A DNA stretch of 64,000 nucleotides from an uncultured Dehalococcoidia bacterium (GTDB lineage: Bacteria > Chloroflexota > Dehalococcoidia > Lucifugimonadales > JAAXIE01), in assembly GCA_951813255.1 (NCBI GenBank), contig OX638353.1, forward strand, positions 2,155,472 to 2,219,471, written 5' to 3'. How positions within the stretch are numbered: the first letter of the stretch is position 1; each line of letters opens with the position of its first letter. A program made the position numbers and the translations under genes. The notes under the pieces are model-generated. The model had not been told where the DNA came from. It saw nothing but the letters and a program-made list of their open reading frames with translations, and ran no database searches. Shown here one piece after another: positions 12,732 to 56,929 of this stretch.

Positions 12732-13349
12732 ATGACTACCAACGCTAGCTGGACTCTCAAGGGCGAATACTTCGAGAACTGCAACTGTGAGGTTCTCTGT
12801 CCCTGCATCGTTCAGGGAACAGGCATCGACCCCACTGACGGCCACTGCGACGTAGCCTTTGCCTTCCACATCACCGACGGCCAGTTCAACGGCGTGTCCC
12901 TAAACGGCCTGAGCTTTGTGGCTGCCTGTCTCACCCCCGGCCCCATGGAAGCCGGCAACTGGACATCCGCCTTCTACGTCGACGAACGTGCTGATGCCCA
13001 GCAGCGAGAGGCCATGGAGCAGGTCTTGTCAGGCCGCATGGGCAGCCCCGCCGAACGCTGGCTCGCCATGACCACCGACTTCAAGGGCATCAAGTTCGTC
13101 CCCATCGACTTCAAGATCGAGGGCAACACTCGCAGCGTGACCATCCCCAACATCATCTCCTTCAACGTTGCGGGCATCACCAAGCGGAACCAGCCTGACG
13201 ATATGCTGCTGCGAAACACCGGCCACCCCGTCAACACCGACCTCTACCTAGCCAAGGGCACAGCCAGCACCTACACCGACCACGGCATGACTTGGGACAA
13301 CACCAACCGCAATGGCCACTACGCCCCTTTCGACTGGCACTGGCCCTAG
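12732..13349 (+). CDS. DUF1326 family protein
   Basis: Characteristic ENCNCEVLCPCIVQG Cys motif near the N-terminus, ~205 aa. Confidence 0.6.
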   Translation: MTTNASWTLKGEYFENCNCEVLCPCIVQGTGIDPTDGHCDVAFAFHITDGQFNGVSLNGLSFVAACLTPGPMEAGNWTSAFYVDERADAQQREAMEQVLSGRMGSPAERWLAMTTDFKGIKFVPIDFKIEGNTRSVTIPNIISFNVAGITKRNQPDDMLLRNTGHPVNTDLYLAKGTASTYTDHGMTWDNTNRNGHYAPFDWHWP

Positions 13350-45482: not shown

Positions 45483-46310
45483 ATGCTGCCAAGTGAACTT
45501 TGGCGCAAGATGGTGGAAGAAGAGCACGCCCAGTCTGACGCCCGGCGCGGGCCGGAGCCGCCGCCTGCGGACCACTGGGCCCCCTTTGCGGCCAATTTTG
45601 CTGCCGACCCCCGCCGCTCCGACGACCAACTGATCGGCCCGCTGGGACGTGACCTCGAACCCACGGACACGTTGATGGACGTCGGGGCGGGTGGCGGACG
45701 CCATGCCCTGCCTCTGGCCCTGCGTTGTCAACAAGTGGTTGCGGTGGAGCCATCACCCAGCATGTGCGCCGTCCTTCTGCAGTTGACCTCGGCCCACAGC
45801 ATCAAGAACGTCACCATCGTGCAGTCCACGTGGGAGGACGCGGAGGTCGAGCCCGTGGATGTTGTCATCAGTTGTCATGTGGCCTACGTGGTACGGGACA
45901 TTGCCGGTTTCCTGCGCAAGATGGACGCCCATGCCCGCAAGATGGTGCGCATCATCCTGTACCCCTTCTCGCCCCAATCTGAGGGCTTCGAGATCTGGGA
46001 GAGGGTACACGGCGACAAGCGGCTCTCTCTGCCGGGACTACCACAGTTGTTGGACGTGATGGAGGAGCTGAAGATACCCTTCGAGTCGGAGCCTCTGAGC
46101 GCGAACCATCCCCGTACCTACGCAACGCCGCAGCAAGCCTTGGAGCAGACCGCCCGCAGGCTATACGTCCAGCCGGGCGACCCCAAGATGCGCGAAATCG
46201 AATTGGCCTTCGAGGAGTTATTGATCGAGGAGGACGGAGGCTACCGCATCAAGGGGGCGCCGGTGCTGGTTCCCCACATGGTGTCGTGGAAACCGTCTAC
46301 GGCCCGCTGA
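45483..46310 (+). CDS. Class I SAM-dependent methyltransferase
   Basis: [16 protein letters not shown] motif I. ATG at 45483 follows AAGGAAGAAG. The ORF-track start at 45381 is unlikely. Confidence 0.65.
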
Positions 46311-49300
46311 GGTAGGCAGTCACCGGTTTCACACTGTAGTAGCGGTTCCCCATCGTCAGGCTCTCCACCGCAGCCCGCGCCGTATCCAGCGAGGTGAAAC
46401 AGGGGATGCGCCTCTCGGCAGCAGCCCGCCGTATCTCGAACCCATCGCGCAGCACGGAAGCATGCTGGGAGATGGTGTTCACGATGGCCTGCACCTCCCC
46501 CCGCTCCGTGACATCTACCACATCAGGATGCCCCTCGCCAATCTTGAGAGGAACATACGCGACTTCGCACCCCAAGGCCTGCGCCATGGCGGCAGTGCCT
46601 TCAGTAGCGTAGATGGGAGTCCCGGCTTCCGCCAGCCCGCGTACCAGAGGCACCGCCTCCGATTTGTCCCTGTCAGCTATCGAGAGCAGCACCGGCCGGT
46701 CAGGACGCAGCGTGAGGTTGGCCGCTGTCAACACCTTGCCCAAGGCTCCTTGGAAGGTGTGGTCAATACCCATGACCTCTCCCGTCGACTTCATCTCCGG
46801 GCCCAGGAACCAGTCTACCCCCGTCAGCTTCGACATGGAGAACACCGGGGCCTTGATCCCCACAACCCTCTGGCGCTTCCACAGTCCTCCGCTATAGCCC
46901 AACTCCTTCAGCGTCCTCCCCAGCATCACCTTTGTTCCAATGGAGGCCACCGGCAGCCCCGTCACCTTCGATATAAAGGGAATTGTGCGACTGGCTCGCG
47001 GGTTTACTTCCAGGATGTAGACCTCGTGGTCGTCCGTGTCGCTGCCATCGCGCATGCGCGGGCTGCGGTAGGCTTCTCCGCCCAGTATGACCACCTGCAG
47101 ATTGAACAGGCCCCGCACACCCAGTCCCAGACCCACACGGGTCGTGTAGTCCACGATGGTGTCAACTTCCTGCTCGGTTAGGTTCAGCCCGGGGTAGATG
47201 GCCATGGAGTCGCCCGAGTGCACTCCCGCCCGCTCGATGTGCTCCATGATGCCCGGCACTAGCACCTGCTCACCATCGCAGATGCCGTCCACCTCAACCT
47301 CTTTACCCTCCAGATACCGGTCCACCAGAATCGGCCTGCCCTGCCCCACCTCCGTTGCCATCGTCAGGTAGCGGATCAGCTCAGAAGCGCTCTCCACAAT
47401 CTCCATGGCTCGTCCGCCCAGCACATAGCTTGGCCGGACCACCACGGGATACCCCACCTCCTGCGCCACCCGCAGCGCCTCCTCCACTGATGTCACCGCC
47501 GAACCCGGAGGTCGGGGTAGCCCCAGCCGGTTCAGGAACGCCTCGAACTTGTTCCGGTCCGAAGCACGGTCAATCGTATCGGCGCTCGAACCCAGCACCG
47601 GCAAGCGGGCCTTGGAAAGCCCCTGCGACAGGTCGATCGCCGTCTGCCCTCCGAATTGCACTATGGAAGGCGGCGCATCCCCGCCCACGCTCTCGTTGTC
47701 CAGCAGGTCTCGCACCGCTTCATCATCCAGCGGCTCGAAGTACAGCCGGTCGCTCGTATCAAAGTCCGTCGATACCGTCTCAGGGTTGGAGTTCACCAGA
47801 ATGCTCTTGACGCCCTGCTCCTGCAGCGCCCAAGCAGCATGCACGCTACAGTAGTCAAACTCTATGCCCTGCCCGATCCTGATCGGTCCGCTCCCCACAA
47901 CTAATGCCCGCGCCCCCTCCAACGGCGGCGCCTCATTCTCCTCTTCATAGGTGGAATAATAGTAGGGAGTAGCCGCCTCGAACTCGGCAGCACAGGTGTC
48001 CACCATCTTGTATACCGGCCTGATCCCCCACTGCCTGCGCAGGCTCCTCACCCGCTCCGGGTCGACGTCTGACAACGCACCAATCTGTCGGTCCGCAAAC
48101 CCTAGGCGCTTCGCCTCCCACATCAGTTCCCGCGTCAGTCGACGGCTCAGCAGCAGCCGCTCCATCCCCTCAATCCGCGCCAGAGCACTCAGGAACCACA
48201 AATCAATGCCCGTGCTCTGGGCGATGGACACCACGTCTTTACCTCGGCGCAACGCGCTCATCAGTCCCCACAAACGCTGGTCCGTCGGGGCTAACCCGTC
48301 GGCGCTCTGGGTGTTCGCGTCTTCCCACAACAGCGACCGGCCCCCAATCTCCAGCGACCGCACCGCCTTCTGCAACGCCGCCTCAAAGGAGCGGTCAATT
48401 GCCATCACCTCCCCGGTCGCCTTCATCTGCGTGGTCACCGTCCGGTCGCCCGTGGGGAACTTGTCGAAAGGCCACCTCGGTATCTTGACCACGCAGTAGT
48501 CCAGCGCAGGCTCAAACGCCGCCATCGTCTGCTGCGTGACCGCATTGCTTATCTGGTCCAGTGTCCGCCCTACCGCAATCTTGGCCGCTACCCGGGCAAT
48601 CGGGTATCCCGTGGCCTTGCTCGCCAGCGCCGAACTCCGGCTCACTCTGGGGTTCACCTCAATGATGTAGTACTCTGCCAACTCCTCATTTAGCTTGGGC
48701 AATGAGTCGCGCACTACCGGATGTGGGGCCAGCGCGAACTGCACGTTGCATCCGCCCTCCACTCCCAGCGCACGGATAATCCGCAGGCTGGCCGAGCGGA
48801 GCATCTGGTATTCTTTATCCGTCAGCGTCTGGCTGGGGGCCACCACGATGCTGTCCCCCGTATGCACCCCCAGCGGGTCCAGATTTTCCATGTTGCACAC
48901 GGTGATGCAGTTGTCCGCCCCATCCCGCATCACCTCATACTCGATCTCCTTCCATCCAACCAGCGACCGCTCCAGCAGCACCTGGCTCACCGGGCTGGCC
49001 TCAAGCCCCCGCCGCACCACCTCCTCGAACTCCTCTTGCGTATGCGCAATGCCCCCGCCCGTACCCCCAAGAGTAAAAGCAGGACGCACCACCAAGGGCA
49101 GACCCAACTCATCCAGTGCCCGGCGCGCCGCCTCCATGGTCGAAACGCAGTCGCTGGGCAACACCGGTTCGCCCATGTCCGCCAGCAAACGGCGGAACCT
49201 GTCCCGGTCTTCAGCATCCTCAATCGCCCGCAACGGAGTCCCAAGCAATCGCACCTTGTGGTGCTCCAGCACGCCCGCCTGCGCCAGGTCCACCGCCAGA

Positions 49301-49584
49301 TTCAGCCCCGTCTGCCCCCCCAGCGTGGGCAGCAACCCCTCCGGCCTCTCCTGCGCGATGATCCGCTCAATCACCTCCACCGTCAGCGGCTCTATATAGA
49401 CGATGTCTGCAATGCCCGGGTCGGTCATGATCGTTGCAGGGTTGGAGTTGACCAGCACCGTGGTCACTCCCTCCTCCCGGAGCGCCTTGCAGGCCTGTGT
49501 CCCCGCATAATCAAACTCAGCCGCCTGCCCAATCACAATGGGCCCGGAGCCGATCACAAGCACCTTGCTAGGCATCTGAGCCAT
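46297..49584 (-). CDS. carB: Carbamoyl-phosphate synthase large subunit
   Basis: [32 protein letters not shown]-terminus, duplicated ATP-grasp halves, ~1095 aa. The ORF-track start at 49650 would overlap carA, so the ATG at 49584 is preferred. Confidence 0.9.
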
Positions 49585-49603
49585 TGCGGGGGATGGACTT
49601 GAA

Positions 49604-50707
49604 TCAGGCACTGCTGACCATTTCCAAGAACCGGTCAAACATATGCTCATTGTCCAGAGGCCCAGGCGAAGCCTCCGAGTGATACTGGATCGTCAGCAGC
49701 GGGTAGTCCCGGTGGCTCAGACCCTCCACCGTCCCGTCATTTATGTTCACCTGCATGACCTGCAGTCCGCCCTTCACCGATTCCGCATCCACCGCATACC
49801 CATGGTTCTGCGCCGTGATGTACACCCGCCCGGTCGCCAGATCCTTCACCGGATGATTCGCTCCCCGGTGCCCAAACTTCAGCTTGAACGTACTGGCCCC
49901 CAGAGCCCGCGCCAGAAGTTGGTGTCCAAGGCATATCCCCAGCACCGGCACCCGCCCCACCAGCCTCCGGCATTCATCCACCGCATAGTCCAGCAGCGCA
50001 GGGTCCCCCGGCCCAGGCGACACCACCACTCCGTCCGGCTTCAGCCCAAGGATTTCATCCGCACTGGTGGCCGCCGGCACCACTGTCACCCGGCACCCGC
50101 GTCGCGCCAGGTTCCGCAGGATGTTGTACTTCAGCCCGCAATCCGTCACCACGATCCGGGGCCCCGGCCCGTCCGCGTCTCCATCCCCCCACTGGTACGA
50201 CTCCCGTGTGCTTATCCCCGCCACGAAATCGGTGCTATCGTACTGGGGCCCTTCCAACACCCTGGAAAGCGCTTCCTCCGGCTCGCTCGCCCCCAAACTT
50301 CCCATCATCACACCCTGCGTCCTCAACCGCCTCGTGATGGCCCGAGTATCCACGTCCCATATCCCCGGCACCCCCTGCGACGCCAGGTACTCATGCAAAG
50401 TCATATCGCTCAGCCCATGGCTCGGCGTCGCACAATGCTCCCGCACCACCAGACCCGCCACCTGAATCCGCGCCGACTCCACATCCCGCGCATTGATCCC
50501 ATAATTCCCCGCCAGCGGGTACGTCAACACCACAATCTGCCCAGCAAAAGACGGGTCCGTCAGCATCTCCTGATACCCCGTCATACCCGTACCGAACACC
50601 ACCTCCCCAAAAGCCTCACCAGCCGCGCCAAAAGCGCGGCCAGAAAACACGGACCCATCCTGAAGAACCAAATACGAAGGGCTGGTCATAAAGCGTACAT
50701 CCACCAT
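49604..50707 (-). CDS. carA: Carbamoyl-phosphate synthase small subunit (glutamine amidotransferase)
   Basis: [19 protein letters not shown]-terminus, GICLGHQLL catalytic Cys region. The true start may be the internal ATG (MTSPSYL...) at ~50689. Confidence 0.9.
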
Positions 50708-50708
50708 T

Positions 50709-50740
50709 CGTCATTCCCGCGAAGGCGGGAACCCACGGCC
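50709..50740. repeat. Single copy of the REP-like palindromic unit CGTCATTCCCGCGAAGGCGGGAACCCACGGCC, immediately upstream of carA
   Basis: Identical to units in the arrays at 53094-54442. It forms a TTCCCGC-GAAG-GCGGGAA hairpin with a GNRA tetraloop. Confidence 0.85.
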
Positions 50741-50828
50741 AAGACCGCCAAGCAACCAACTCTCACGCAGGCCGTCCCGTTTTGTCCCTTGCTTGGTGCC
50801 AAGGCTATGGAGAGTTCCTTCACAGGAA

Positions 50829-51947
50829 CTAATCGTCATTATCGCCCACATCGTCGACCTCGACTTCATATTCCGACGTCGCAACAGTGTCCTGTTGCTG
50901 CACGGCGTCATACACGGCTTGGATGAGCCCAATCAAGGTGTTCCTGTGCGTATCCCAATCGGGAGCGGTCAATCTGAACTGGATTTCGGTTCCAGGCTCA
51001 AGGGGATTTCCCTTTCGTCCCTTCGGATATGTATCGAATGGTATATCTCCAATAGCTTCCTGAAACCCGTCCGGGCACAGCTCAACGGCGCGAGAATAGA
51101 ACAACAGGTCCACCCTGTGTTCGTGCGCGGCCACGCGAGCGTATGCTAGGTATCTACGCCGGGATATGTCAGACATATCCCGCAGATACAGACCAATGCG
51201 GCGTGTGCCAACGTTTTCATCGTGTACTGTCCAATTTCTCCGAAAGGTGGACACGGCTTCCACAAATAGATCATGCACTCCGAGGTCCTTAGCTAAATCG
51301 ACGAGGTGCTCCCATCTCTCAGCCTTGCTCGGCGTGTCGCGTCTCCCAGCACCATTGCCGACCCCACTGGTGCTTTCGACATTCAGCTGTCGGGCCAAGA
51401 GTGTCTTGCCTTCGTAGGAGAATCCATAGAAAGTCAGCAGCGAAATATCCATGCCACTGCTCTTGGCGAGGAAAGTTACCATTCGCTCAGTCCTATTATC
51501 GACGCCGAGTCCTACCAATACTGTCCGTATTGGGCGCAGGGATTCCAACCCATCTCCCTGCGCATTGTCACCATACCATTCTTCAAAGTTCTCTATTCTC
51601 TCGATACCGTGCCTAGCCGAATTGTGAGAGATATGCTGGCATAGTTCACCATCATCCAAGGAGTCCAAGTACGAAGCATAATCGATCACCTGGGCAACAG
51701 CGTCACGCGACAACGTGCCCCGCTTGAGTTCGAACACCACCAAGCGACCTTCCTCGTCTACACCAAGCAGGTCTAGTGGGCCTCCTTCTGTTGGAGTTTG
51801 CCTCCCTACTAATCGAAGGCCCGGCATAAGCAATTCGGGATGAGCAACTAAGGTTTTTTCAAGCAGTGACTCCGACGCCACCGCATCAGATGCCTCCACC
51901 GGTGCAACACCAACATCATCAACCGACCAAATCTTGATCTGATCCAC
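50829..51947 (-). CDS. PD-(D/E)xK nuclease with a NucS/EndoMS-type catalytic motif at the N-terminus and a ~270-aa C-terminal region of unknown function with an acidic tail
   Basis: LEKTLVAHPELLMPGLRLVGRQTPTEGGPLDLLGVDEEGRLVVFELKRGTLSRDAVAQVIDYASYL matches the NucS C-terminal nuclease-domain pattern. The rest has no recognizable motif. Confidence 0.6.
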   Translation of the reverse strand: MDQIKIWSVDDVGVAPVEASDAVASESLLEKTLVAHPELLMPGLRLVGRQTPTEGGPLDLLGVDEEGRLVVFELKRGTLSRDAVAQVIDYASYLDSLDDGELCQHISHNSARHGIERIENFEEWYGDNAQGDGLESLRPIRTVLVGLGVDNRTERMVTFLAKSSGMDISLLTFYGFSYEGKTLLARQLNVESTSGVGNGAGRRDTPSKAERWEHLVDLAKDLGVHDLFVEAVSTFRRNWTVHDENVGTRRIGLYLRDMSDISRRRYLAYARVAAHEHRVDLLFYSRAVELCPDGFQEAIGDIPFDTYPKGRKGNPLEPGTEIQFRLTAPDWDTHRNTLIGLIQAVYDAVQQQDTVATSEYEVEVDDVGDNDD

Positions 51948-52006
51948 TGTAGCTACCCCATAGCGTTAGTAGCGGTAGCGGAACTCTCCCCCTACCATCG
52001 TCCCCA

Positions 52007-52273
52007 CTACCTTACCCCTAAACCCAGCCCCGTGAAAGGGGGTGTTCCTCCCCTTGGACGCGAACGCAGAGTATCCTCGGCGCTCAGCACCTTCCCCGCT
52101 TCCTCGAACGAAATCCGCGTCCGCGTGCTCGCCTCAAGGAACAGCGTCATCACCACCTTGCCCCGCAGCGGAGGCACCTTCTTGATGTCCCGCCGCAGCA
52201 CCTCCTTCATCGCCTCGGAGGTCTGCAACACCTGCTCTATCTCATCAGCCGAAAAGTCGTCCAGGTCCAGCAC
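52007..52273 (-). pseudogene. pyrB: Truncated aspartate carbamoyltransferase (pyrB) remnant. Only ~60 N-terminal codons are PyrB-like.
   Basis: [55 protein letters not shown] matches the PyrB N-terminus (carbamoyl-phosphate-binding STRTR motif). The sequence then diverges and terminates, and the nuclease gene starts 60 nt downstream. Confidence 0.7.
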
Positions 52274-52337
52274 ATGCTATCTCGCCGGCAGCCGCCCCAC
52301 CTCCGGCACGCCATCCACAACCGCCGGTTCGGTGCTC

Positions 52338-52934
52338 CTAGCAGTTGTCGCCATTCCCTGCCTCCCTCTCATCATCTTTTTCGAGAATGGGGAGACCCAG
52401 TATCCGCTTGCTCACCACCACCTCGTCGATGCTGTCCACCTCCAGCAACCGCACCTTCACCATCTCATCCCACTCCGTGGCCAGCGTGCGCCCCACGTAA
52501 TCAGCCCTGATGGGAAGCTCTTGGTGCCCCCGGTCCACCAGTATCGCCAGCTGCACCTGCCCCGGCCGCCCGAAGTCCATCAGAGCATCCAAGGCCGCCC
52601 GTATCGTCCGCCCCGTGAACAGCACATCGTCCACCAGCACCACCCTCTTCCCATCAACCCGGAACGGCATCTGCGTCGGCCTAACCAGCGGCTGCGCCCG
52701 CTCCTGCAAATCATCCCGGTACAGGTTGATATCCAGCGCCCCCACCGGGACCTCCGTCCCTTCCAGTTCACCCAAGTCCGACGCCAGCCTCGCCGCCAGC
52801 GGAAACCCCCTCCGCTGTATCCCAACCAGCGCCACATCCGCCAGCCCCCGGTTCCGCTCCACCACCTCATACGCGATACGCGTAAGCGACCGCCGCATAT
52901 CCTCCGCCGTCATAACCTGCAATTCTTGTTCCAC
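52338..52934 (-). CDS. pyrR: Bifunctional pyrimidine operon regulatory protein / uracil phosphoribosyltransferase PyrR
   Basis: [15 protein letters not shown] and PRPP-binding [17 protein letters not shown] motifs. 198 aa. Confidence 0.85.
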
Positions 52935-53093
52935 GTCAACCTTCGAGGTGTAGTAGCCCCTCAGCCGAACAGCACAATATCTTGTGGCTCAGAGCCAAGC
53001 CCAATTATTGGCGGAAAGCGGGCTATGTCAAGGCAACCTGCCCCCAACCTTGAGACCCGGCGTACCGCAAGAGCCCCCACGAACCACGCTCCC

Positions 53094-53359
53094 CGTCATT
53101 CCCGCGAAGGCGGGAACCCACGGCCCCCAGACACAGCCCACGTCACCACTCCCAAGCAGTCAACCCACACCCCGCCATTCCTGCGCAGGCGGGAACCCAC
53201 GGCCCCAGACACAGCCCACGTCACCACCCGAAGCAATCAACCCACACCCCGTCATTCCCGCGAAGGCGGGAACCCACGGCCCCAGACACAGCCCACGTCA
53301 CCACCCCGCAGCAATCAACCGCCCTCCCGTCATTCCCGCGAAGGCGGGAACCCACGGCC
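53094..53359. repeat. Tandem array of four ~77-79-bp units. Each holds the 32-bp palindromic REP-like element (CGTCATTCCCGCGAAGGCGGGAACCCACGGCC) plus a near-identical 45-bp linker.
   Basis: Copies at 53094-53125, 53173-53204, 53250-53281 and 53328-53359. The linkers (CCCAGACACAGCCCACGTCACCAC...) are more than 85% identical to each other. Confidence 0.85.
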
Positions 53360-53501
53360 TGGACGATGAAACAAGTCGCCACGCCCCCCGCATCGACACC
53401 CTCTTCCGCGTCCTCGACACCCTCGACCTCCGCTCCTCCCTCCGTTCATCGCGAGCGAAGGGAGCGGGACCTACATCCCACCCCTGTATACTCACAACGT
53501 C

Positions 53502-53786
53502 ATGACCCCCTGCGTCTATATCCTAGCTAGCGGCACCAAAGGAACCCTCTACATCGGCGTCACATCCGATCTCCCCCAACGCCTGTGGCAACACATGAGC
53601 GGCTACGGCAGCCATTTTGCCCGCCGCTACGCCGTAGACCGCCTAGTCTGGTACGAAACCCACGAGTCCATGATCAGCGCCATCTCCCGCGAAAAAGCCA
53701 TGAAGAAATGGCGTAGGGTCTGGAAAATCAGACTAATCGAAGAAACCAACCCATCCTGGTCCGACCTATCCGACAAGCTGGGCTAA
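53502..53786 (+). CDS. GIY-YIG nuclease family protein (94 aa, stand-alone)
   Basis: VYILASGTKGTLYIGVTSDLPQRLWQH is the GIY-YIG motif. It sits between the two repeat arrays. Confidence 0.75.
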   Translation: MTPCVYILASGTKGTLYIGVTSDLPQRLWQHMSGYGSHFARRYAVDRLVWYETHESMISAISREKAMKKWRRVWKIRLIEETNPSWSDLSDKLG

Positions 53787-53810
53787 CTCCAACCACCCAT
53801 CCAACCCCAC

Positions 53811-54442
53811 CGTCATTCCCGCGAAGGCGGGAACCCACGGCCCGAACCATCCCCCAACTCACTACTCCCTAGCCAACACCGCCAAAACCCTCAACGCCCA
53901 TCCATCCCCCGTTCATCCCAAGCGAAGACACCCTGCCCGTCAAACAACGAACTCAGCCCGAATCTTGACCAACTCAATACCCCACCGTCATTCCCGCGAT
54001 GGCGGGAACCCACGGCCCGGACCATCCCCTAACTCACTACTCCCCTAACCAACTGTGCCACCGTCATTCCCGCGGAGGCGGGAACCCACGGCCCGGACCA
54101 TCCCCTAACTCACTACTCTCTAACCAACACCCCCAAAACCCTCCACGCCCCCCCATCCCCCGTTCATCCCAAGCGAAGACGACCTGCCCGCCAAACAACG
54201 AACTCAGCCCGAATCTTGACCATCTCGCTACCCCACCGTCATTCCCGCGAAGGCGGGAACCCACGGCCCGGACCTTCCCCTAACTCACTACTCCCTAACC
54301 AACACCCCAAAACCCTCCACGCCCCTCCATCCCCCGTTCATCCCAAGCGAAGACACCCTGCCCGTCAAACAACGAACTCAGCCCGAATCTTGACCAACTC
54401 AATACCCCACCGTCATTCCCGCGATGGCGGGAACCCACGGCC
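53811..54442. repeat. Second tandem array: ~175-bp unit repeated about 3.5 times plus one 76-bp partial copy. Each unit begins with the same REP-like palindrome.
   Basis: REP copies at 53811, 53986, 54062, 54237 and 54411. Periods are 175, 76, 175 and 174 bp. Units are more than 90% identical. Confidence 0.85.
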
Positions 54443-54859
54443 CGGACCACCCCCTAACTCACTACTCCCTAACCAACGCAACCGGCTCCTCCACGTTCTT
54501 CCCTACACGACCCGGAAGAACTACGCAAAAGACTAAGCGACCGTATTCTCCAAGTCATAGGGCAAGGCCCCCTAGCCAATATTCACCCATAACTGCGCGC
54601 TCCTACATCGTTGATGCGTTCAGCCCTAGAGCCCCTAGCCATGCCACCCCTTTGACAATTCCCACACATTCGTTCTATACTGCCTACAGAGCGCGCTGGG
54701 GACTGCCTGCCCCGGACCCCGATCCGGGGACCCCAAAGGTCACCCCAACGCGCTTTCTTTTGCCAACCGCTCTCAAGGAGACCCGACCATCGGAATCCCA
54801 AGCGACACCCGGATCGACCCCGGCTTGCAGGCCGGTTCCACGTTCACGCTCCCTGTGAC

Positions 54860-55160
54860 CATTGCAGAAATTGCAGAGAAATTAGCTACGAAAAAACTCC
54901 CGCCAGCTACGACCAGTCTGCAACACGCAAAGCCCCTCCCTAGCCAGCCCAATCTCTCAATCAGACGAAATGGGCACAAATGGAACGAAATTCAAGGATT
55001 ACACCACCCCGCTGCACCAAATACTGCAAATAGGTTCAACAATCCCTATCTGGCCAGCTACAGCAGTGAGACCAATGAGCCTATTTTCAGCTACGAAAAA
55101 CGCATTGCAGCTACGCTGGCGGTATCACGCAACTGCGCAAGAGCCCCGTGGGCATCCAAA
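54860..55160. repeat. AT-rich dispersed repeat (copy 2), homologous to part of 36921-37140
   Basis: Shared segments are TATCTGGCCAGCTA and TTTTCAGCTAC(G/A)AAAAAC...AGCTACG. Also contains TTGCAGAAATTGCAGAGAAA. Local GC is far below the flanks. Confidence 0.65.
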
Positions 55161-55249
55161 TTGACGCCCCTCACAGCCCGTTGTTAGACTCGCCTCGAAT
55201 GGCGTCCCTCTTTGCAGGGCCGCTTCTCCCCCTGAAGGAGGTATAGCCC

Positions 55250-56929
<1,680 letters not shown>

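Follow-up and report, generated by a model that had tools for sequence, protein, structure and literature searches.

We analysed the pyrimidine biosynthesis (pyr) operon in a window of 64,000 nucleotides (contig OX638353.1, positions 2,155,472 to 2,219,471) from an uncultured Dehalococcoidia bacterium. At this locus pyrB and pyrC are reduced to remnants and lie upstream of an intact gene for a NucS-like nuclease. The arrangement probably records two independent events: a deletion of about 2.0 kb across pyrB and pyrC, and the long-standing residence of the nuclease gene between pyrC and carA, in a hypervariable slot. Of the two, the deletion is a case of ordinary pseudogenisation. Of greater interest is the slot, which is embedded in the operon and holds a nuclease resembling the Escherichia coli restriction nuclease Madara but with a new C-terminal domain.

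Read along the minus strand, the locus consists of pyrR, pyrB 5' remnant, pyrC 3' remnant, the gene for a nuclease of 372 amino acids (aa), a REP hairpin, carA, and carB. An earlier sequence-only reading had given the order as pyrR, pyrB fragment, nuclease, REP, carA, carB, and the open reading frames (ORFs) and Pfam matches agree with it. It had also described the operon as disrupted, which the truncation of both pyrB and pyrC confirms.

The pyrB and pyrC remnants and the deletion junction

Related loci were reached via PyrR, which led to the Dehalococcoidia metagenome-assembled genomes (MAGs) L001-L003, and via the genomic contexts of eight homologues of the nuclease. The features at the centre of the analysis, in window coordinates, are:

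52354..52076, minus strand: pyrB 5' remnant (pseudogene), 93 codons homologous to PyrB residues 1-93; tblastn with the PyrB of L001, 91% identity
52075..52065, minus strand: deletion junction; blastn and local alignments to L001, L002, and L003
52064..51966, minus strand: pyrC 3' remnant (pseudogene), 32 sense codons plus the stop; tblastn with the PyrC of L001
51947..50829, minus strand: stand-alone nuclease gene, intact, 372 aa; NucS_C at residues 26-95, E 3.2e-10

The pyrB remnant matches Pfam OTCace_N at positions 4-67 of 148 only (E 2.3e-16). Homology to PyrB ends at residue 93 of 337, within an incomplete carbamoyl-phosphate-binding domain. The aspartate/ornithine-binding domain (Pfam OTCace, PF00185) has no match, and PyrB residues 94-337 gave no tblastn match anywhere in the 64-kb window. 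Of the 88-codon ORF at 52273..52007 (minus strand), only the first two-thirds is PyrB-like. The sequence-only reading correctly saw pyrB as reduced to a stub but put its length at 60 codons, whereas about 93 pyrB-homologous codons are present. The stub is interrupted in frame by a TAG at 52279..52277, a position at which relatives have Gln, giving the translation 'GRLPAR*HVLDL' as compared with 'GRLPARQHVLDL' in L001. This codon falls in an N-terminal extension of 27 codons, the rest of which is well conserved in relatives.

The main body of pyrB is gone, as the same reading had stated; pyrC, which it thought possibly absent as well, retains its last 33 codons at 52064..51966. PyrC residues 428-457 (of 476) are encoded at 52064..51975, in a different frame from the pyrB stub and with 90% identity to L001. 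The pyrC tail ends '...GGEFRYRY*' at 51966, 18 nt ahead of the nuclease start codon, and its 'GGEFRYR' is of the type found in genomes in which the slot is occupied. The amidohydrolase barrel (Amidohydro_1/DHOase) is missing, with residues 428-457 being all of PyrC that the window holds. No further pyrB or pyrC signal was detected in the whole 64-kb window by tblastn with the proteins of L001, L002, and L003. Judged by their reading frames and missing domains, both pyrB and pyrC are non-functional at this locus.

Collinear DNA on the two sides defines the deletion. Window 52946..52075 corresponds to L001 9989..10860 and window 52064..51420 to L001 12872..13514, leaving L001 10861-12871 (about 2,011 nt) without a counterpart in the window. 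The deletion joins pyrB codon 93 to pyrC codon ~428. Across the junction the minus strand has the sequence ...GTGCTGAGCGCCGAGG / ATACTCTGCG / TTCGCGTCCAAGG..., where pyrB homology stops at ...GCCGAGG (52075) and pyrC homology restarts at TTCGCG (52064). The 10-nt ATACTCTGCG between them (52074-52065) matches neither side well and may be filler or diverged pyrC.

No PyrB at least 68% identical came from the source contig among the best 120 PyrB matches or the members opened in the four closest PyrB clusters. The missing record argues against a close paralogue of pyrB elsewhere on the contig and leaves room for a distant one.

The nuclease gene is resident between pyrC and carA

The order in L001, L002, and L003 is pyrR-pyrB-pyrC-(...)-carA-carB. 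Between pyrC and carA, L003 has a 372-codon ORF that is 54% identical to the window nuclease over 353 residues. A nuclease homologue was found in the pyrC-carA slot in five of the eight homologue contexts and in two of the relatives found through pyrR, one of them frameshifted. The slot is occupied, in the same orientation, in L003, L009, L010, L013, L014, and L016, and by a frameshifted copy in L001; pyrB and pyrC are full-length in all seven.

The closest database homologues of the window nuclease, P0002 (66% identity), P0005 (59%), and P0006 (59%), lie in the same slot, and each follows an intact pyrB (337-379 aa) and an intact pyrC (426-460 aa). The upstream neighbours of P0002 and P0005 are alike, namely SurE and methylmalonyl-CoA mutase. 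P0053 and P0081, from a more distant lineage, are likewise located between pyrC and carA, and the proteins flanking P0053 (in L013) are 59-71% identical to those of the window. Three other homologues, P0010, P0011, and P0014, are in unrelated contexts.

Since pyrB and pyrC remain full-length in relatives that have the nuclease in the same slot, the gene is not a substitute for pyrB, and the proposal of the sequence-only reading that a nuclease module had been inserted into pyrB or taken its place is not supported. Synteny with the close relatives shows some 2.0 kb missing upstream of a resident nuclease gene. The simplest history would be that the nuclease was already in residence when a separate deletion occurred upstream of it.

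Accessory genes are scattered through the pyr operon of the distant lineage (L013 2548-13052, L016 269-6662). A NUDIX gene separates pyrB from pyrC, DUF2283 and a RelB-like gene adjoin the nuclease, and VapB-VapC (PIN) occupies the gap from carA to carB. On this pattern, the gaps between the cistrons of the pyr operon may be general landing sites for selfish or defence genes.

Split ORFs were observed for the nuclease homologue in L001 (12990-14025, two frames) and for pyrB in L002 (10581-11610) and L003 (10581-11572), and many members of the PyrB clusters are truncated (139-295 aa). Such ORFs are either the frequent frameshift errors of long-read MAG assemblies or real pseudogenes, and calls of single-gene pseudogenes need caution.

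The slot is hypervariable

In comparisons of the window with its close relatives, the flanking proteins are 82-92% identical and the nuclease 54-65%. PyrR and CarA of L003 and L010 are 96% identical, whereas their nucleases are 57% identical. At the DNA level pyrC and carA of this pair are 90-99% identical, with an abrupt fall to 53-70% over approximately L003 12870-14160. L001 and L009 have flanks that are 92-100% identical in most 100-nt windows (lowest 88%) around a nuclease region of 35-76% identity. In L002 the slot is empty, with the pyrC stop at 13033 and the carA start at 13036, while its flanks are 93-100% identical to those of L003 and L010; the C terminus of its PyrC differs from the occupied-slot type.

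Base composition also sets the nuclease gene apart. In all five genomes its G+C content (GC) is 52-55% and its GC at third codon positions (GC3) is 55-61%, as against a GC3 of 72-81% in the neighbouring genes. Taken together, near-identical flanks, a divergent or absent nuclease, and atypical GC point to turnover driven by recombination, as at restriction and defence hotspots. The slot pattern is what alleles repeatedly gained, lost, and replaced through recombination in the conserved flanks would leave behind.

The nuclease protein

The 372-residue protein consists of a NucS-type PD-(D/E)xK module (residues ~1-212), a low-confidence linker (~191-204), a C-terminal domain (205-358), and an acidic tail. 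The 'unknown 270-aa C-terminus' of the sequence-only reading resolves into the rest of the nuclease module and this confidently folded domain. A profile of 49 family members searched against the PDB matched NucS (2vld, E 1.4e-9) and EndoMS (5gke). The segment GPLDLLGVD...VVFELKR aligns with the catalytic motif GIVDVMGVD...VVLELKR of 2vld, placing the PD-(D/E)xK residues in register, and Asp-59, Glu-73, and Lys-75 (D59, E73, and K75) are invariant in the 49 homologues. In a Foldseek search of the PDB with the full model, only NucS and EndoMS were found at E <= 0.001, and DUF419 had a probability of 0.82.

The canonical NucS equivalog has an N-terminal domain and a C-terminal nuclease domain in ~220-250 aa. 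The window protein scores 53.5 bits with NF003270 (cut-off 216) and 37.8 bits with NF002876 (cut-off 252), and these NCBIfam matches cover only positions 118-202 and 89-173 of the two models, respectively. Scores so far below the cut-offs, confined to the nuclease domain, bear out the earlier view that the protein is not canonical NucS.

More than 2,000 clusters at 90% identity match the family at E <= 0.001, with a typical length of 345-375 aa and a 500-aa variant. Plasmid proteins annotated 'endonuclease NucS domain-containing' share residues 3-212 only. The best family match was to the PADLOC group PDC-S11, whose profile PDLC04916 aligns with residues 3-213 over positions 4-206 of 358 (E 6.7e-34); four further PDC-S11 profiles match more weakly, and the nuclease module can be placed in this group. 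PHROGs gave a marginal match only (E 0.008).

The AlphaFold2 model of the full protein has a mean predicted local distance difference test score (pLDDT) of 78.9, with values >90 over most of residues 210-350. When residues 205-372 were modelled alone, the pLDDT was 90.6 and the predicted template modelling score 0.83. The C-terminal domain as modelled is of the YjbR/YdhG/DUF419/MotA-CTD-like ('double-wing') fold and not EVE-like. Pfam searches of the 49 family members returned NucS_C only, leaving the C-terminal domain without a model. A search with the domain against 1.84 billion representatives found 50 proteins, most of which have the same two-module architecture, the rest being shorter sequences. 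Across the family, identity to the window protein is 38% in the C-terminal domain and 68% in the N-terminal module.

The ~500-aa variants (P0011, P0027, and others; e.g. L012 6001-7503) match the C-terminal query in two stretches, which suggests that their C-terminal domain may be duplicated. The ~500-aa homologue of L012 adjoins a metallo-beta-lactamase-fold gene that has a faint match to Anti-Pycsar_Apyc1.

REP repeats and tests for a mobile element

The spacer between the nuclease and carA contains a palindromic repeat:

50709..50740, plus strand: solo REP-like hairpin CGTCATTCCCGCGAAGGCGGGAACCCACGGCC, 7-bp stem, GAAG loop; nuclease-carA spacer

The spacer measures 139 nt from the nuclease stop to the likely carA start at 50689. 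The hairpin core TCATTCCCGCGAAGGCGGGAACCCA (50711-50735) has 10 copies in the window as against 0.00 expected, counted with <=3 mismatches to the 25-mer and 100 shuffles. With a palindromic unit, a 7-bp stem and 4-nt loop, an intergenic position, and many copies, the element qualifies as REP-like. All 10 copies lie within 4 kb of the pyr operon in one orientation, the other nine in arrays at 53096-54437, 2.4-3.7 kb away from the solo copy. The core is not present in the loci of the close relatives. We conclude that the solo REP is a stray copy of the arrayed repeat and not the boundary of a mobile module; the sequence-only reading had taken the nuclease for part of a module flanked by a palindromic repeat, and both the missing core in relatives and the distance of the arrays speak against this.

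The sequence-only reading had further pointed to possible target-site duplications around 50709 and 52006. A search found none, and no direct repeats bracket 50709-52006. Neither a transposase nor an integrase ORF lies in the segment. A transposon or homing-type insertion was rejected on the grounds that there are neither target-site duplications nor conserved terminal repeats. The sole inverted repeat bracketing the nuclease is 24 nt long with 75% complementarity (50809-50832 / 51966-51989); it brackets the nuclease ORF exactly and has a perfect 10-bp core, GGAGAGTTCC/GGAACTCTCC. It was not found in the boundary sequences of L003, L009, and L010. The 10-bp pair was considered as a cassette site and rejected, since, by our own estimate, chance alone would yield ~2 such pairs in 1.9 kb and the repeat was not found at those boundaries; we take it to be coincidental.

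The intergenic region between pyrR and the mutase gene is 2.3 kb in the window as compared with ~360-950 nt in L009 and L010. The nine same-orientation REP copies are arranged around a GIY-YIG nuclease gene (94 aa, 53502..53786, plus strand; Pfam E 2.9e-15), with four ~78-nt tandem units on its upstream side and ~175-nt units on its downstream side.

The intact genes of the operon

The remaining features of the operon are:

53004..53031, minus strand: candidate sigma-70-like promoter, TTGACA-16-AATAAT, 11/12 matches; consensus scan only
52934..52338, minus strand: pyrR, intact, 198 aa, first operon gene; Pfam Pribosyltran E 1.6e-25
50707..49604, minus strand: carA, intact; Pfam CPSase_sm_chain E 2.9e-52, GATase E 5.5e-50
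49650..46297, minus strand: carB, intact; ~90-91% identity over residues 2-1117 to CarB of L001, L002, L003, L009, and L010

The PyrR of the window is 82-84% identical to that of L001-L003. CarA is 82-86% identical to its counterparts in relatives from residue 7 onward, and its true start is likely to be the ATG at 50689, where this homology begins. The intactness of carA and carB agrees with the second role of these genes in arginine synthesis. GC is 52-54% over ~50700-52050 and 60-68% in the flanks.

The candidate promoter is located ~70 nt upstream of pyrR. From pyrR to carA the consensus scan found no terminator-like site with a convincing position, and an Rfam scan of 49500-55400 found no PyrR attenuator or other RNA at E <= 1. 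Long antisense ORFs of 293-445 codons (49643..50926, 52032..53369, and 48721..49602, all on the plus strand) lie opposite carA, carB, pyrR, and the REP array, and translate the REP hairpins as the recurring peptides 'SREGGNPRP' and 'VIPAKAGTHG'. They are almost certainly not genes but typical of GC-rich DNA.

Proposed history and function

We propose an ancestral operon pyrR-pyrB-pyrC-nuclease-carA-carB from which a single ~2.0-kb deletion would have taken ~245 codons from the 3' end of pyrB and ~427 codons from the 5' end of pyrC. The deletion is likely to be young compared with the divergence from the nearest relatives, given that the stub has 91% protein identity to theirs while the surrounding DNA is ~77% identical. 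It would have left pyrR, the nuclease gene, carA, and carB intact and probably still read from the pyrR promoter. Given the promoter-like site upstream and the lack of a convincing terminator or Rfam element, we infer read-through, with transcription passing both remnants into the nuclease gene, carA, and carB. Within this Dehalococcoidia clade, recombination in the conserved flanking genes would have brought nuclease alleles in, removed them, and exchanged them. In the protein, the NucS-like N-terminal module (D59, E73, and K75) would cut DNA, and the variable C-terminal domain would choose the target, which is most likely to be modified phage DNA. By analogy with characterized enzymes (below), the nuclease is probably a modular, single-polypeptide restriction nuclease of a type IV-like kind, with a probable role against phage.

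Several observations weigh against this account. An exact search for the junction in the JGI metagenomes returned 0 matches, and an assembly error or a minority structural variant is possible at a locus whose related assemblies frequently contain frameshifts. The 'nonsense' codon of the stub counts only if the 27-codon N-terminal extension of the relatives is really translated. For a defence gene, it is unusual to keep a lasting place in a biosynthetic operon and not in a defence island. With respect to function, no EVE-like fold, the type described for the C-terminal domain of Madara, was found in the C-terminal domain here, and the five PDC-S11 profiles all leave the C-terminal ~150 residues uncovered, so that function is transferred from the nuclease module only. 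Moreover, the YjbR/YdhG fold also occurs in proteins that do not bind DNA, such as frataxin-like proteins, so that DNA binding by the domain in question is at most plausible.

The doubts about the assembly can be extended into an explanation in their own right, in which the junction is an artefact or a minority variant of the MAG and the dominant genotype has an intact pyrR-pyrB-pyrC-nuclease-carA-carB operon. The window nuclease is on record from one contig only, no independent contig with the junction was found, the stub is nearly undecayed at 91% protein identity, and sister assemblies have split pyrB and nuclease ORFs that resemble frameshift errors. However, errors of the frameshift type do not make a clean 2-kb loss with both flanks collinear, no repeat spans both breakpoints to collapse the assembly, and the protein collection lacks a PyrB of at least 68% identity from the source contig, as expected if no intact pyrB was called; we judge the artefact improbable. 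A similarly low rating is given to an accident of cassette exchange, with one crossover in carA and another, illegitimate one in pyrB, by which a pyrC tail and a nuclease replaced the 3' part of pyrB, pyrC, and the old allele. In favour of this, allele replacement in the slot is demonstrable, the GC drop starts near the junction, and the 10-nt unmatched stretch is of a kind common in illegitimate joins. The left edge of the L003/L010 swap (~L003 12866-12872) also lies only 20-35 nt from the equivalent of the right deletion endpoint (L003 ~12890-12903), but this coincidence rests on one pair, the boundary in other pairs being ~100 nt further downstream (~L001 12978; L002 12937-12993). The pyrC tail of the window looks native, with ~84% DNA identity to L001 by our own count as against ~77% for the native flanks, and no known donor allele exceeds 66% identity. 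An exchange accident is unlikely on this evidence.

A different function for the nuclease has also to be considered, namely that of a housekeeping factor in DNA repair or nucleotide metabolism tied to the pyr operon, such as a mismatch or damage endonuclease co-regulated with pyrimidine supply. Its gene is co-oriented and tightly packed in the pyr operon of two Dehalococcoidia lineages whose PyrR proteins are 58-59% identical, and the sole solved homologues are the repair enzymes NucS and EndoMS. Against such a role stand the presence/absence/pseudogene polymorphism, alleles of 57% identity amid near-identical flanks, a persistently atypical base composition, and homologues in unrelated contexts. 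In addition, the protein lacks the N-terminal DNA-binding domain of NucS (53.5 as against 216 bits), and the family that it matches best is that of a defence candidate which has since been validated. We regard a housekeeping function as very unlikely.

Between these alternatives and the two-event history lies a bolder extension of the latter, which we consider doubtful. The pyrC-carA junction might be a dedicated, recombination-driven defence slot within an essential operon, with changing alleles of a new type IV-like nuclease in which a NucS-type cutter is paired with a 'double-wing' YjbR/MotA-CTD-like sensor of modified DNA, its expression coupled through PyrR to pyrimidine depletion, for example during phage infection; cassette turnover or self-inflicted breaks might then have deleted pyrB and pyrC and made the strain an auxotroph.

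If the deletion is real, the strain cannot make pyrimidines from this operon and must use salvage or its neighbours, and the locus would be a small, concrete case of auxotrophy arising in a soil lineage. Though set in a core metabolic operon, the slot behaves as a defence hotspot would, and it offers a natural allele series for studying the evolution of enzyme specificity. The family that fills it is uncharacterised, comprises ~50 clusters at 50% identity, and has no Pfam model for its C-terminal domain.

Comparison with known systems

Repeats like those around the operon are familiar as REP/BIME palindromes, which are likewise short, GC-rich, intergenic hairpins, multicopy and often arrayed. 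The window copies differ in all being near the pyr operon, in one orientation, and nine of them in tandem units, and no RAYT-type transposase was seen among them. The array around a small GIY-YIG gene recalls REP/RAYT pairs, with a different nuclease.

Hypervariable defence loci between conserved core genes are known from other bacteria, e.g. the immigration control region of E. coli and defence hotspots. The slot described here resembles them in its fixed position, in its empty, occupied, and pseudogene states, in its divergent alleles, and in its atypical GC. Unlike them, it is set within a biosynthetic operon, with a pyrimidine-pathway cistron on either side, and all the alleles that it has in the sampled genomes belong to one family, whereas defence hotspots hold mixed systems.

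Relative to NucS and EndoMS (2vld and 5gke), the window nuclease lacks the N-terminal dimerisation/DNA-binding domain and has an extra C-terminal domain of 170 aa. Closer parallels are provided by two NucS-like restriction nucleases. A NucS-like nuclease fused to an inactive EndoIII/Ogg sensor, END-Mag (one of the END nucleases), restricts phages with modified G according to a 2025 preprint (PMC12191111). Both it and the window protein combine an N-terminal NucS-like nuclease with a C-terminal domain that acts, in END-Mag, as a sensor of non-canonical bases; the domain in the window protein is not of the helix-hairpin-helix glycosylase fold, the comparison with END-Mag being by description only.

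The E. coli PDC-S11 protein 'Madara' (from ECOR34), a single-gene, modification-dependent (type IV-like) restriction nuclease, restricts T4 containing glucosylated hydroxymethylcytosine but not T4(C), and the D63A substitution in its NucS-like motif abolishes defence (bioRxiv 10.64898/2026.09.05.749240). Like the window protein, Madara is a single polypeptide with an N-terminal NucS-like PD-(D/E)xK module, a linker, and a C-terminal domain, and the PDC-S11 profiles span 347-379 positions, in keeping with the 372 aa found here. The catalytic Asp is kept, D59 corresponding to the essential D63 of Madara. The C-terminal domains differ, that of Madara being described as 'EVE-like' and that of the window protein being predicted to have the YjbR/YdhG/DUF419/MotA-CTD-like fold. 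The settings differ as well: Madara is encoded beside BREX, whereas the window protein belongs to a Dehalococcoidia host, is encoded in a pyr operon, and is known from sequence alone. Because of the differing C-terminal domain we place the window nuclease as a variant akin to Madara and END-Mag and not as a strict member of their pattern. With it, the NucS-like modular nucleases would gain a third kind of C-terminal domain.

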